From: an uncultured Holophagales bacterium
GTDB taxonomy: Bacteria; Acidobacteriota; Thermoanaerobaculia; Multivoradales; UBA5704
Assembly (NCBI GenBank): GCA_963842525.1
Contig: CAWJGT010000003.1
Coordinates: 1,664,001-1,728,000 of the forward strand
Direction: 5' to 3'
Length of the DNA: 64,000 nt
The notes under the pieces were generated by a model. It did not search any database and was not told the origin of the DNA. It saw only the letters and a program-made list of their open reading frames with translations. Every line of letters begins with the position of its first letter. Positions within the stretch are counted from its first letter, which is position 1. A program made the position numbers and the translations under genes. Below are positions 13,222 to 33,311 of the stretch, piece after piece.

Positions 13222-13251
13222 TTGACTTCCGCCTCATTCCTCGTCTAGTCT
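13222..13251 (+). promoter_or_regulatory. Putative sigma70 promoter of paralog 1
   Basis: TTGACT-N18-TAGTCT, with the same CCCTCTTGAC context and spacing as 33282-33311. Confidence 0.55.
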
Positions 13252-13350
13252 TGGACATCCGCAGCAGGAACTTCTCGCGGGAGGAGGTGAGACCGAGCCA
13301 GCAGATCCGATCCAGACCGATCCGCCGTCGTGACCTTCGATGTCGTACCC

Positions 13351-13425
13351 AGGAAAGCGGGCCCGAGTGAGTTGCAGACCTCACCCGGACCCCAGCCACG
13401 CAAAGGAGTGACCCAATGCGCGACC
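13351..13425 (-). ncRNA. Candidate ~75-nt cis-antisense RNA covering the RBS and start codon of 13416..13958
   Basis: Extended -10 TGGTACCAT on the minus strand at 13432-13440. A 13-bp hairpin at 13359-13392 has two mismatches that are G-U pairs only on the minus strand, followed by GCTTTCCT. Confidence 0.5.
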
Positions 13426-13958
13426 ATGAAGATGGTACCACCCGCCGTCCGTCCACCCAGGCGGACATCCCTGAAGCATCCGGCAACCCTCTCGTCCCCC
13501 AGCACGTCTTCGATCCCGGCTACCTTCAGCTCATGGCCCACCGCGACGAGCCCTGGACCGGCTCCGAGGCGGATGTGGCCGGGCCTTGGCACCTGGAGCG
13601 GTTCCCTGGCGGTCATGCCGTCTTGCGGGAAGGGGAGTCGCTGCGCCGCGGCGACGTCCCGATGGCCCGCTTCGCGGCCGAGGATGCCGCCCAGCTCTGT
13701 GCCGCCGTGCTCCCTGGCACGGGCCGGAGCCGGCGCTATCAGCTCGGACCCGACCCGGACGCCGAGGGCTATCCCATCCACCGGGACGGTCGGCTCGTCG
13801 GCCACCTGGCTCTTTTCGATCCCGACCTGATGGCGGCGCTCAACGTGGCCGACGCCCTTGTCTCGTCACCCCGCGACTTCGCCTGGCTGCTCGACGCCGC
13901 GGGAGGGCTCCTCCTCGATCACGCCGGCAAGATTGCCCTGGCCCGCGCCCTGGTCTGA
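13416..13958 (+). CDS. Hypothetical protein, paralog 1 of a three-copy family
   Basis: AAGGAG RBS. Shares F.P.(F/Y)L...RDEP.T..EAD.AGPW, AAVLPGTGR, GHLALFD and SP..(L/F)A.LL.AAG with 20300..20809 and 32560..33102. Confidence 0.8.
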   Translation: MRDHEDGTTRRPSTQADIPEASGNPLVPQHVFDPGYLQLMAHRDEPWTGSEADVAGPWHLERFPGGHAVLREGESLRRGDVPMARFAAEDAAQLCAAVLPGTGRSRRYQLGPDPDAEGYPIHRDGRLVGHLALFDPDLMAALNVADALVSSPRDFAWLLDAAGGLLLDHAGKIALARALV

Positions 13959-13963
13959 GGCGG

Positions 13964-14809
13964 TCACCCCTGGCTCGCGCGGGTTTGGCGGGTCCGCACC
14001 ACCCGCCAGCCCGCGAAGAGCAGCAGGAAGAGCCCCAGCGAGCAGACGATTGCGGGCCCGCTGGGGAAGTCCACCTGGTAGGAGGCGATCAGGCCCACGG
14101 CGCTGGCGAGGAAGCCGACCGCCCAGGCGATGGCGATGCGTGCTCCCCAGCGGTCGCTGGTGCCCAGCGCGATGATTGCCGGAGCCACCAGGTAGGAAAA
14201 GACCATCAGGACGCCGGCGATCTCGACCGACAGGGTGATGATCACGCCGAAGGAGACGTAGAAGAGGAAGTCCCAGAGCCGGACATTGATCCCTTCGGCA
14301 TAGGCGCGGTCCGGGTCCTCCGAGATCATGATGAAGCGGCGCCTGAAAAGATAGTGAAAGAGGCCGACCGCCGCGTAGATCACCAGGTCCTTGATCACCG
14401 TCCCCCAGGTGACCCAGAGGATCGAGCCGGCGAGCAGCTCCTTGATGTGCTCCGCCCCCTCGGGCGCCCGGTCCGCCACCAGGATGGCCGTGGCGGAAGC
14501 GATCACATAGGTGATGCCGATGACCGCCTCCTGCGGGACCTTGCTTTCGTGGGTGCGCGTGCGGGTGAAGCTGAAGATCAGGGCGCCGAGCACGGCCGCG
14601 CCCAGCGAGTACGCGAACGAGGCCGCGCTCCCGACCGGATGCCCGAGGACGAACGCCACGACCGCGCCGAGCGCGGCGATCTGCGCCAGCGCCAGGTCCA
14701 CGAAGATGACCTGGCGCAGCAGGACGTGCAGGCCCAGGTAGCCATGGATCCCCACCAGGATCAGGCAGGCCGCGAACGGGGCGGCCATGAACGCGAGCAT
14801 TTCGAGCAT
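13964..14809 (-). CDS. Metal (Zn/Mn/Fe) ABC transporter permease, ZnuB/MntB-like
   Basis: Motifs GYLGLHVLLRQVIFVDLALAQIAALG, EAVIGITY, GVLMVFSYLVAPA and DFPSGPAIV; multiple TM helices. Confidence 0.88.
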   Translation of the reverse strand: MLEMLAFMAAPFAACLILVGIHGYLGLHVLLRQVIFVDLALAQIAALGAVVAFVLGHPVGSAASFAYSLGAAVLGALIFSFTRTRTHESKVPQEAVIGITYVIASATAILVADRAPEGAEHIKELLAGSILWVTWGTVIKDLVIYAAVGLFHYLFRRRFIMISEDPDRAYAEGINVRLWDFLFYVSFGVIITLSVEIAGVLMVFSYLVAPAIIALGTSDRWGARIAIAWAVGFLASAVGLIASYQVDFPSGPAIVCSLGLFLLLFAGWRVVRTRQTRASQG

Positions 14810-14846
14810 CCTGCGACTCCTTCTTGGTAGAGCTGGCCGCGGTGGA

Positions 14847-14993
14847 CCCTCACCCCCGTCCCCTCTCCCAACCGCACTCCCAAGCCACCGGGAGAGGGGC
14901 GCCCCCACCCAAGAACTTCCATGGGAGTGCCTTTTCCCCCCTCTCCCGGGGGAGTGGGAGTGCGGTTGGGAGAGGGGGGTAGGGGGGTGAGGG
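14847..14993. repeat. Full REP-like inverted doublet (CCCTCACCCC...GGGGTGAGGG)
   Basis: Two inverted arms, CCCTCTCCCAACCGCACTCCCA and TGGGAGTGCGGTTGGGAGAGGG. Confidence 0.85.
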
Positions 14994-31989: not shown

Positions 31990-32086
31990 GGCTCAGGGTC
32001 GGAGTTGGAGCGGGACCAGCGGGCGTCGAGCACGCGCGATTATAGACACACCACCGCCGGCGGCGATTTGAGGCTCCTCGGCCGCC

Positions 32087-32465
32087 CGACGGACAGTTGG
32101 CCCTGGTCTGGCCGCAACCAGCGCCGGAAAAGGGGCGGTTCGCTCCGCAGGTCGGACGGTTAATGCTGCGGGTCGGACAGTGCGCTCTGAAGGTCGGACG
32201 GTTGTGGCCGCGGGACGGACAGTTTGCTCCGAAGGTCGGACAGTTGCTGGAACGGCTCGGACAGTCCATTCCGAAGGACGGACAGTTGACGTAGCAGGTC
32301 GGACAGCTCGCTCCGCGAGGCGAACCGTCCGACCCGCGGAGCCGACTGTCCCTTGTCCGGCACAGACTGTCCGTGTCGATCCTCCCGGAGCCACCATGCC
32401 GGTACGAACTGTCCGAGCCGGTCCCGTCGCTCAGGCGAGATCGGCGCCTACCGTCCGTACCGGTC
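32087..32465. repeat. 21-bp-period array, core GGTCGGAC(A/G)GT, followed by inverted copies of the core
   Basis: Cores at ~32150, 32171, 32192, 32213, 32234, 32255, 32276 and 32297. AC(T/C)GTCC(GA) units occur from ~32324 to ~32460. Confidence 0.8.
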
Positions 32466-32559
32466 TGGTGGACTGCGCGGGATCAGCCCCCACCATCCAT
32501 TTGGAGCTGCTGGAAGCCGCGAGACCGGAGCGATCGCCACCCGTCTCTATCTAATAAGG

Positions 32560-33102
32560 TCAGCTTTCCGGTCCGGCAACCTGCCGGTCGAGGATCGCTC
32601 CGGCCCGTTCCAGAGCGATCGCTCCCGCGGCCTCCAGCAGCCGGGCCAGCGACTCGGGCGACCTCACCAGCATCTCGGCCACATGCAGCGCTTCAATGAG
32701 CCGGTCGTCAAAGAGGGCCAGATGACCGACGAGCTCGCCGCTGCCAACCACGGCGTAGCCGGCCAGCTCCGGATCGACCTGCAGCCGGAATGCAGCATCC
32801 CGGCCCGTGCCTGGAAGGATGGCCGCAGCCAGTAGAGCCACCGACCGACGCCGGAACACCGCGAAAGGCCGGAACCGCCGGGCCGGTTCCTCGCCGAGGC
32901 GGAACAGCCCCCAGCCGGAGCCGGGGATCTCCTCGAGCTGCCAAGGCCCGGCCATATCGGCCTCGCCCGCCGTAAGAGGCTCATCGCGCTCGCCCACCCG
33001 CTTCAGAAACTCCGGGGTGAACGCATTCGCGGGATTGACGGGATACTGGGAGGACGAAACGTCGGGGACAGACGGGGTGCTATTCTCTTCAGAGCCCTTC
33101 AT
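32560..33102 (-). CDS. Hypothetical protein, paralog 3 of the three-copy family
   Basis: NAFTPEFL...RDEPLTAGEADMAGPW, AAILPGTGR, GHLALFD and LVRSPESLARLLEAAG; AAGGAGG RBS. Confidence 0.82.
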   Translation of the reverse strand: MKGSEENSTPSVPDVSSSQYPVNPANAFTPEFLKRVGERDEPLTAGEADMAGPWQLEEIPGSGWGLFRLGEEPARRFRPFAVFRRRSVALLAAAILPGTGRDAAFRLQVDPELAGYAVVGSGELVGHLALFDDRLIEALHVAEMLVRSPESLARLLEAAGAIALERAGAILDRQVAGPES

Positions 33103-33168
33103 GGAGTCTACCTCCTTGTGGGGTCAGGTCCGGGAGTTGAGCCTCCACTCACTTCCGGGCCGCTTGTG
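33093..33168 (+). ncRNA. Candidate ~75-nt cis-antisense RNA covering the RBS and start codon of 32560..33102
   Basis: Extended -10 TGCTATTCT at 33078-33086. The hairpin at 33127-33161 has two G-U pairs on the + strand and is followed by GCTTGT. Confidence 0.5.
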
Positions 33169-33281
33169 GATTGGCCGCGAGACAACGCGGCCGGCGAGAG
33201 AACGCTGCGGTGCGGCTTCGCGGTTCTTTGGATCTTGCCTGGCCACCTCCCTTCGTGGTTTACTGCCTTGATACCGCCTGC

Positions 33282-33311
33282 ATTGTAGAGAGGGGCGGCT
33301 GGGGGTGTCAA
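33282..33311 (-). promoter_or_regulatory. Sigma70 promoter of paralog 3
   Basis: Minus strand TTGACA-N18-TACAAT. Confidence 0.7.

Follow-up and report, generated by a model that had tools for sequence, protein, structure and literature searches.

Control of a ribosome-binding site (RBS) by a cis-encoded antisense RNA is a known principle. In IS10, the RNA-OUT/RNA-IN pair provides antisense multicopy inhibition of transposition. In IS200, a cis-encoded small RNA (sRNA) located opposite the 5′ untranslated region (5′UTR) of tnpA and the structure of the mRNA together suppress the transposase, according to PMC4513863. In Escherichia coli, the promoter of symR lies within the open reading frame (ORF) of symE, and silent mutations in its −10 box abolish SymR (PMC1891008). 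The multicopy chromosomal type I toxin-antitoxin (TA) loci include hok/sok, ldr/rdl, and ibs/sib, which a review (PMC5367252) describes as encoding membrane peptides of <60 amino acids (aa), each family with its own RNA. The current analysis deals with a predicted antisense RNA cassette found in a 64,000-nucleotide stretch of DNA (hereafter, the window; contig CAWJGT010000003.1, positions 1,664,001 to 1,728,000) from an uncultured member of the class Thermoanaerobaculia of the Acidobacteriota, whose genome of 9.95 Mb in 34 contigs is labeled G000. A sequence-only reading of the window had pointed to three homologous ORFs and proposed that they are silenced by short antisense RNAs; it also suggested counting the family members genome-wide, looking for covariation in the leaders on both strands, and comparing the protein fold. 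The ORFs are located at positions 13416..13958 of the plus strand (copy 1, 180 aa), 20300..20809 of the minus strand (copy 2, 169 aa from the ATG at 20809), and 32560..33102 of the minus strand (copy 3, 180 aa). Their products are paralogs, as had been proposed: copies 2 and 3 show 43% and 47% identity to copy 1, and the alignment contains long runs of residues that are invariant in all three. They are referred to below as cargo family F1.

By predicted geometry, the SymE/SymR pair is the closest known system. In that pair, the antisense promoter lies in the first codons, the RNA covers the Shine-Dalgarno (SD) sequence and the start codon, the protein encoded is soluble and not a small membrane peptide, and the locus is chromosomal; all this has its counterpart in the units proposed here. 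The differences are the number of copies, 10 to >60 per genome here versus one, and the apparent use of one RNA cassette for at least five dissimilar proteins. Nothing was seen in these units that would point to LexA control. The SymE toxin family (Pfam entry SymE_toxin) has an AbrB/MazE-like fold. None of the three window proteins matched any Pfam family at an E value of ≤1, in agreement with the earlier statement that they do not resemble SymE, and no AbrB/MazE-like chain was among the best rows of the F1 fold searches, a missing match that does not exclude this fold.

The units also resemble IS200 art200/tnpA and IS10 in being ~0.7-kb, multicopy, and limited to one small ORF, with an antisense sRNA (in the units, a predicted one) opposite the 5′UTR/RBS, mRNA structure alongside, and what would be a logic of copy-number-dependent repression. 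In contrast to these elements, they carry diverse cargos, lack the HUH (Y1) or DDE transposase signature, and have no terminal repeats or subterminal hairpins at their borders. With hok/sok, ldr/rdl, and ibs/sib (PMC5367252), they share lineage specificity, chromosomal duplication, a cis-antisense RNA (here, a predicted one), and a narrow phylogenetic range. The cargos, however, are soluble proteins of 96 to 180 aa that share a cassette. An antisense RNA gene complementary to the cargo mRNA, a defining trait of type I TA systems, is represented here by conserved predicted elements at 91 loci.

Antisense elements in the leader and the first codons

Alignment A3 contains the antisense strand of these 91 loci over an interval that begins 75 nucleotides (nt) before the ATG and reaches 34 nt into the ORF. 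A leader profile (nhmmer) built from the host-genome copies matched all 80 of the 80 loci fetched from other metagenome-assembled genomes (MAGs). At nt 17 to 22 of the ORF (codons 6 to 8), the antisense strand carries a TAnnnT hexamer, in which T-12 is present in 90 loci, A-11 in 90, and T-7 in all 91, with a G at −14 in 84 of them. The most common versions are TAGAAT (35 loci), TAGACT (10), TACCAT (9), and TACAAT (9), followed by others, and the sole locus that departs from the pattern is window copy 2. In copy 1, the putative extended −10 element TGGTACCAT is found at 13432..13440 (minus strand, inside codons 6 to 9), with the hexamer TACCAT at 13432-13437; in copy 3, it is TGCTATTCT at 33078..33086 (plus strand), with the hexamer TATTCT at 33081-33086. 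Both elements are 13 nt from the start codon, and in copy 2 the hexamer is replaced by CCCCGT, within the ORF at 20788-20793, exactly the distribution that had been noticed from the sequence.

The third base of codon 7, which corresponds to T-12, is T in 87 of 88 ORFs, even though T occupies only 6.7% of the third positions from codon 21 on and the residue specified by codon 7 varies among nine amino acids; therefore, selection must be acting on the DNA and not on the protein. Seven bases downstream of the −10 hexamer, a conserved A and an invariant G lie opposite ORF nt 10 and 9, making this site (the codon 3/4 boundary) the likely start of the antisense RNA. The spacing from the −10 hexamer through this purine start to the two hairpins described below (SL1 and SL2) and the U-tract is invariant.

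In G+C-rich genomes, the first codons of genes are often A/T rich. The TAnnnT hexamer could thus represent nothing else, and the hairpins might act in the sense mRNA or in the DNA, by sequestering the RBS or as a read-through barrier, with no antisense RNA gene involved. Indeed, the sense strand can form the same helices in a weaker version. This explanation is very improbable, given the invariant spacing, the strand bias of the helices (see below), and the exact positional fixation of T, A, and T next to third positions that are C (codon 3 in 88 of 88 ORFs and codon 8 in 81 of 88).

Analysis of A3 with RNAalifold predicted a 5′ hairpin, SL1, formed by the complement of codons 1 to 3, the spacer between the SD sequence and the AUG (the loop), and the SD region, and a G+C-rich 3′ hairpin, SL2. 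In the combined 26-pair antisense structure, 94.8% of the 2291 cells are paired, and 14 of the 26 pairs show compensatory changes. None of 500 column shuffles reached the observed value in any of five measures, and sliding the partners by 1 to 3 columns lowered the pairing to 33 to 51%. Comparison of the two strands, as had been suggested, gave 94.6% pairing on the antisense strand versus 68.7% on the sense strand for SL1 and 94.9% versus 82.9% for SL2. The weaker pairing of the sense strand comes from cells in which an antisense G-U pair becomes C.A: there are 453 such cells in the two helices of the 91 loci (289 + 164), as opposed to 29 (11 + 18) of the reverse kind, which bears out the earlier remark that the non-Watson-Crick positions are G-U pairs on the antisense strand only. 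The folding z-score of the antisense strand is below that of the sense strand in 83 of 91 sequences, with a shuffling procedure that does not exactly preserve dinucleotides. At least 5 T residues are found within 8 nt past SL2 in 76 of 91 loci, with the consensus tail GTTTTCGTTT. Variability within the predicted RNA is highest in the loops (1.56 to 1.68 bits) and lowest in the stems (0.36 to 0.70 bits), and close paralogs have diverged in the RNA region at approximately the rate of their synonymous sites; both observations would fit a role of the loops as specificity determinants. According to this comparison, the predicted antisense RNA elements do exist, hold fixed positions, are under nucleotide-level selection, and form only on the antisense strand. 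The proposed short cis-antisense RNA over the RBS, with its SymE/SymR-like geometry, thereby has strong support from conservation and strand-specific covariation at 91 loci, and these loci very likely contain a cis-antisense RNA gene.

In the window, the predicted RNA of copy 1 is ~75 nt long (13351..13425, minus strand; +1 at 13425/13424, tail GCUUUCCUGGG) and matches the covariance model described below with an E value of 9.0e-14. Its SL1 (13394-13425) extends over the start codon and the SD sequence, and SL2 occupies positions 13359-13392. The predicted RNA of copy 3 is ~77 nt long (33093..33169, plus strand; +1 at 33093/33094, tail GCUUGUGGAUUGG; E value of 3.8e-19), with SL1 at 33094-33124 and SL2 at 33127-33161. 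These ends (13425 to ~13351 and 33093 to ~33169), deduced from the positions of the elements, agree within a few bases with those proposed originally. In folds of an 88-nt segment compared to 200 dinucleotide shuffles, the antisense strand of copy 1 reached −45.6 kcal/mol (z-score of −5.41, none of 200 shuffles as good), versus −24.6 kcal/mol (z-score of −1.71) for the sense strand; the respective values for copy 3 were −38.4 kcal/mol (z-score of −2.31, 3 of 200 shuffles) and −29.9 kcal/mol (z-score of −1.18). The cassette of copy 2 (20810..20881, plus strand) is degenerate: neither of its strands folds better than the shuffles (z-scores of −0.19 and +0.74), and it matches the covariance model weakly (E value of 1.2e-5). 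Accordingly, of the three G+C-rich hairpins listed in the sequence-only reading, those of copies 1 and 3 fold on the antisense strand at the positions given there, and that of copy 2 does not withstand the shuffle control. An Rfam cmscan search of window positions 12000-35000 at an E value of ≤1 returned 5 weak matches, none at the cassettes and all far under the gathering scores.

On the sense strand, a near-consensus promoter TTGAC(T/A)-N16-19-TAnnnT was recognized in 69 of 91 loci, with TAGAAT as the most common −10 hexamer. The sense promoters that had been noticed upstream of copies 1 and 3 are both there: TTGACA-N18-TACAAT of copy 3 (33282..33311, minus strand) is an 11/12 match in the promoter scanner, which found 1 site versus 0.1 expected in shuffles, whereas TTGACT-N18-TAGTCT of copy 1 (13222..13251, plus strand), while visible in the sequence, fails the consensus rule of the scanner. 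A possible sense promoter of copy 2, TTGCAC-N17-TATGAT, can be read at 20970..20998 (minus strand).

The leaders can be grouped by length. Those of the shortest class (75 to 77 nt from the sense −10 hexamer to the ATG) have their entire 5′UTR covered by the predicted antisense RNA; longer leaders carry insertions upstream of the part covered by the antisense RNA. Only long leaders contain a conserved SD-like element, GA(A/G)AGGAGGT(G), approximately 150 nt before the ATG and ~30 nt past the predicted sense start (13280-13300 and 33238-33250 in the window). In copy 1, the leader (13258..13415, plus strand; start approximate, estimated from the position of the −10 hexamer) includes this element as GGAGGAGGTG, as well as the RBS AAAGGAG. 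The GGAGGTG sequence was considered as the start of an upstream ORF or leader peptide and rejected: no conserved frame follows it, the frames differ between close loci, and some copies have GGAGGTC instead. The element might serve as a standby site or as a second pairing site for the anti-SD segment of the antisense RNA.

Cargo families behind the cassette

The covariance model, R1, was built from A3 and the 26-pair structure. In the host genome, it recognized 23 sites, of which 13 belong to F1 copies (among them window copies 1 and 3, as well as copy 2 with a weak match) and 10 are elsewhere. The latter ten precede six ORFs of family F2 (111 to 122 aa), one of family F3 (136 aa), one of family F4 (96 aa), and two remnants; these ORFs share just the first ~14 residues, M-R/P-S-...-D/E-S/G-T-x-P-P. 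Twenty additional cassette loci from five other genomes contained eight F3 ORFs, 11 F4 ORFs (two of them frameshifted), and a single ORF of family F5 (175 aa), so that the survey beyond F1 comprised 30 cassette loci in six genomes. After removal of the first 16 residues, pairwise comparisons of F1 through F5 showed no similarity (hhalign probability of ≤1.5%; best blastp E value of ≥0.05), and searches of Pfam with F2 through F4 gave no match. Because the cassette precedes cargo families without detectable similarity, it can be considered the conserved unit and the protein the varying one. By these comparisons, the conserved entity is the predicted 5′ antisense cassette, and its cargo varies among at least five dissimilar families in two GTDB families of Thermoanaerobaculia. 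The view of the antisense layout as a property of a single protein family, implied in the sequence-only reading, has to be abandoned, since at least four other dissimilar families follow the same cassette.

In the GTDB family of the host genome (f1, 61 genomes searched), the cassette is found in 53 genomes, with 0 to at least 63 copies per genome, and F2 is found in 49 genomes by genome search (a word-based protein search gave 7 proteins). Among the best 30 F2 loci, 10 have a full cassette, with matches that start at or near residue 1. In some genomes, the cassettes far outnumber F1 and F2 taken together: 10 versus 1 + 1 in genome G007, 14 versus 2 + 1 in G014, and 11 versus 0 + 2 in G327. In a class-wide sample of 121 genomes, the cassette was detected in 5, all from families f1 and f2, and not in the other 116. 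When each of the 36 non-F1 cassettes was compared to the others, 13 had their closest match in front of a cargo of another family, frequently within one genome, which suggests exchange of the 5′ module. In genome G007 (C3:3069256-3070219), two F4 units (L173 and L176), each with its own cassette, stand in tandem, ~850 bp apart; units can therefore duplicate locally as well as disperse.

The F1 cargo is a real protein under purifying selection, with dN/dS ratios of 0.08 to 0.27 in 11 close paralog pairs. All named F1 relatives are annotated as hypothetical proteins. Searches with the window F1 proteins of Pfam, NCBIfam, PADLOC, and PHROGs yielded no matches, even at an E value of ≤1; hmmscan of 84 F1 members against Pfam at an E value of ≤10 listed no relevant family; and the best profile match to a PDB sequence had an E value of only 0.078. 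Tandem two-domain forms occur among the relatives, and the ten longer relatives, including these, had only one match in Pfam, a subthreshold one to HATPase_c. The structural model of copy 3 (pLDDT 77) consists of a disordered N terminus, two β-rich halves, and two long C-terminal helices. The fold comparison that had been called for was run with this model: Foldseek found nothing at an E value of ≤0.001 in PDB or BFVD, and a wide VIA-align structural scan gave a best Z-score of 4.1 over 47 residues. The model has low confidence in an invariant acidic DEP...E..D stretch, for which disorder is predicted; the invariant columns include no Ser, Tyr, or His nucleophile. The identification of F1 with Imm61 (PF15598), offered by a protein language model with scores of 0.80 to 0.81, was discarded, as this level is that of chance and hmmscan did not list PF15598 for any of the 84 members. 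For F4, the model, made from 10 sequences only, has a pLDDT of 68.9 and shows a helix packed on a four-stranded sheet; Foldseek found nothing at an E value of ≤0.001, the best VIA Z-score of 4.6 was to a generic helix-plus-sheet roll, and the protein language-model atlas had no usable match.

Copy number, borders, and genomic contexts of the units

The three-copy family of the sequence-only reading turned out to be much larger. A profile of the three window copies matched the host genome in 19 places, of which ~14 are full length and the rest are fragments or changed at one end; hundreds of relatives exist elsewhere. In public protein sets, a word search retrieved 538 F1 relatives and an exhaustive profile search 733 cluster representatives, with Thermoanaerobaculia or Acidobacteriota MAGs as the sources of the named ones. 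F1 was found in only 2 of 301 genomes of a phylum sample, both from one GTDB family, and in 58 of the 61 genomes of f1, with 0 to at least 59 or 60 matches per genome. Members of the same genus differ widely, with 7, 15, 35, and 59 matches in genus g2 and 60 and 8 in genus g4. No F1 relatives were found in plasmid, phage, and IMG/VR viral-contig collections, which hold few or no Acidobacteriota.

Close F1 paralog units are 85 to 92% identical over ~0.75 to 0.8 kb and are dispersed, with unrelated flanks. Their homology begins 10 to 50 nt upstream of the −35 box and ends at the stop codon or, in genome G337, past an intrinsic terminator. Dispersal with sharp borders in unrelated contexts, along with bursts in copy number, is what would be expected from a small mobile element that is kept in check by antisense multicopy inhibition and whose cargo is a new kind of transposase; the suppression of the IS200 transposase by a cis-encoded sRNA opposite the tnpA 5′UTR and by mRNA structure (PMC4513863) provides a precedent. 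Such an origin appears improbable nonetheless. No transposase or recombinase family was matched by F1 (Pfam, NCBIfam, and PHROG) or by F2 through F4 (Pfam), no nucleophile residue is among the invariant columns of F1, and all five dissimilar cargos would need to act as transposases. Further, the aligned unit borders (3 + 2 units in G000 and 9 in G337) have no terminal inverted repeats, subterminal hairpins, or target duplications and coincide with the promoter and the terminator, and no clean empty insertion site was recovered, the same-genus genomes being ~75 to 82% identical and rearranged.

One F1 copy is found in a conserved syntenic position between tsaB-rimI and psd-pssA, where the neighbors were identified in locus L020; clustering of the downstream flanks placed ~18 loci from different MAGs in a single group. 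The corresponding slot of the host genome (C3:1883460-1886308), between rimI and a DUF465-like gene/psd, spans 2.85 kb and has no F1 match.

In the window, copy 1 is flanked by a divergent gene with an FGE-sulfatase domain and a convergent ABC-3/ZnuA zinc uptake operon, copy 2 by a TerC gene and, in divergent orientation, a zf-HC2 anti-sigma gene, and copy 3 by an ORF of 134 aa with no assigned family and an ABC-F ATPase gene on one side and a divergent HNH endonuclease gene on the other. The three contexts are unrelated. The HNH gene (33401-33814, plus strand; 137 aa; PF01844, E value of 9.2e-8) shows no tie to the unit at other copies.

Several observations concern the surroundings of the units. 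The divergent F1 homologs L015 (C19:526042-526512) and L018 (C18:44871-45260), which have no cassette, lie within a segment of ~8.8 kb that is 98% identical between two contigs and represents either a recent segmental duplication or an assembly/binning duplicate (the contamination estimate for this genome is 3.36%). In the same-genus genome G004 (L101), homologs of window positions 3766-4505 and 13993-17240 are only 43 nt apart, so that ~9.5 kb (4505-13993) are either extra in the host genome or deleted in G004; the right edge of this difference (13993) abuts the end of F1 copy 1. Five F1 units of G337 (L117, L123, L125, L128, and L129) share an extra block at −200 to −670 from the ATG, rich in short palindromic repeats of the TCCGGA/TTCCGGA type. 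Finally, the ABC-3 and ZnuA genes are separated by a palindromic repeat of ~150 bp (14845-14997). Many places in the host, same-genus, and same-family genomes match it, on both strands and with 75 to 91% identity. It has only subthreshold microRNA-like matches in Rfam and looks like a MITE- or REP-like element.

Proposed mechanism and nature of the cargo

The explanation preferred here, with a probability of approximately 0.72, is that these loci are autonomous small gene units in which a ~75-nt cis-antisense RNA silences translation of the cargo. Each unit would consist of its own sigma-70-type promoter, a leader of 70 to 200 nt, the ORF, and, in some units, a terminator. The opposite strand of the 5′ cassette would be a ~75-nt RNA gene, with its −10 hexamer (TAnnnT, usually TAGAAT) written into codons 6 to 8 and transcription beginning opposite the codon 3/4 boundary. 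In the resulting RNA, SL1 would fold from the complement of the start codon, the spacer (as the loop), and the SD sequence, and SL2 with the U-tract would serve as the intrinsic terminator. Being perfectly complementary to the ribosome-binding region of the mRNA, the antisense RNA is expected to pair there, probably first via its variable loops, which would block translation and/or trigger cleavage. The cargo protein would then stay off unless its mRNA outruns the antisense RNA. Complementarity to the SD sequence and the AUG makes translational repression the obvious mechanism, and we infer that the antisense RNA is made, that it represses, and that its loops provide copy specificity.

Several findings weigh against this explanation. 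The 91 loci are related by descent, so that the counts exceed the number of independent events, and the shuffle control is affected in the same way. The −35 region of the antisense promoter has a best match of just 1 to 3 of 6 positions in all 91 loci, and T is present at −15 in only 37 of them, leaving the full TG extended −10 in the minority. The U-rich tail ascribed to the window copies is weaker than the sequence-only reading had it: copies 1 and 3 have only 4 T residues in 8 nt, and the scanner calls no terminator there. The GGAGG(T/G) element of the long leaders is left unaccounted for. In window copy 2, the ORF is intact, but neither the −10 box nor the two hairpins have been retained. 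Of the 19 F1 matches in the host genome, six lack a cassette match; c15/c18 and c16 are divergent and near full length, and the other three are truncated or fragments. A cassette is also missing from 20 of the best 30 F2 loci. Hence, the cargo domains can exist unguarded by the cassette.

As to what is being silenced, the leading guess, albeit a tentative one, is that the cargo is toxic or growth arresting, as in type I TA systems. In its strict form, F1 through F5 would be growth-inhibiting toxins and the RNA a labile antitoxin, with the units persisting as addictive or abortive-infection modules. Apart from the SymE/SymR-like geometry, such modules could account for the lineage-restricted, multicopy spread, called typical of type I systems in PMC5367252, for the swings in copy number between related genomes (7, 15, 35, and 59 in g2; 60 and 8 in g4), and for the self-contained character of units with sharp homology borders and unrelated flanks. 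Broken ORFs behind intact cassettes are frequent (c14, L137, L139, L174, L175, and L180), and the invariant, predicted disordered acidic stretch of F1 can be counted on the same side. On the other hand, the cargos are soluble proteins of 96 to 180 aa, whereas known type I toxins are mostly membrane active and <60 aa long (PMC5367252). No toxin family or defense-system model was matched in Pfam, NCBIfam, or PADLOC, and no F1 relative was seen in the mobile-element and viral collections listed above. Intact homologs without the cassette (copy 2 and divergent F1 and F2 relatives) and the copy in the tsaB-rimI/psd-pssA neighborhood, which looks domesticated rather than selfish, weaken the toxin inference of the sequence-only reading somewhat.

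These same cassette-free homologs and the syntenic copy among housekeeping genes would be expected if the cargos were harmless proteins (stress-related, regulatory, or immunity-like) tuned by antisense RNA, with copy number reflecting an adaptive family expansion. Purifying selection on the protein fits as well, as would the lead to Imm61-annotated clusters, were it not at chance level and without support from hmmscan. Yet an adaptive expansion does not readily explain why one 5.9-Mb genome has at least 59 copies, all near-autonomous, and a congener has 8, and one control cassette on five dissimilar proteins is left unexplained; harmless cargos are regarded as slightly less probable than toxic ones, with both readings below even odds. 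Slightly less probable still is the most far-reaching version of the toxin idea, a portable type I-like silencing cassette that evolved in a clade of Thermoanaerobaculia, was joined by recombination to no fewer than five dissimilar soluble proteins, each a growth-arresting effector with a new fold, and has reached >60 copies per genome.

In the literature searched, neither an RNA of this kind nor a type I system was reported from Thermoanaerobaculia or Acidobacteriota; the one paper that mentions Thermoanaerobaculia lists only type II orphan toxins. New relative to this literature is the apparent sharing of one RNA cassette by at least five protein families without detectable similarity, the presence of such units in tens of copies per genome of uncultured soil bacteria, and the lack of resemblance of any of the cargos to a known family or fold. 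The shared cassette indicates that an antisense regulator, here a predicted one, is able to move as one module with the initial codons of its target. The strand-asymmetric G-U signature, combined with a fixed T at a third codon position where it is rare, offers a reusable detector of antisense RNA genes in G+C-rich genomes that needs nothing beyond the sequence. If the cargos are not toxins, these bacteria would possess a rare example of a large, dedicated antisense regulon. If they are, they would provide a set of effector folds not seen before, and RNA antitoxins would extend to a new phylum. Should the portable toxin cassette prove true, it would be the first RNA-antitoxin system in Acidobacteriota and the first with interchangeable large toxins, several of them with new folds.

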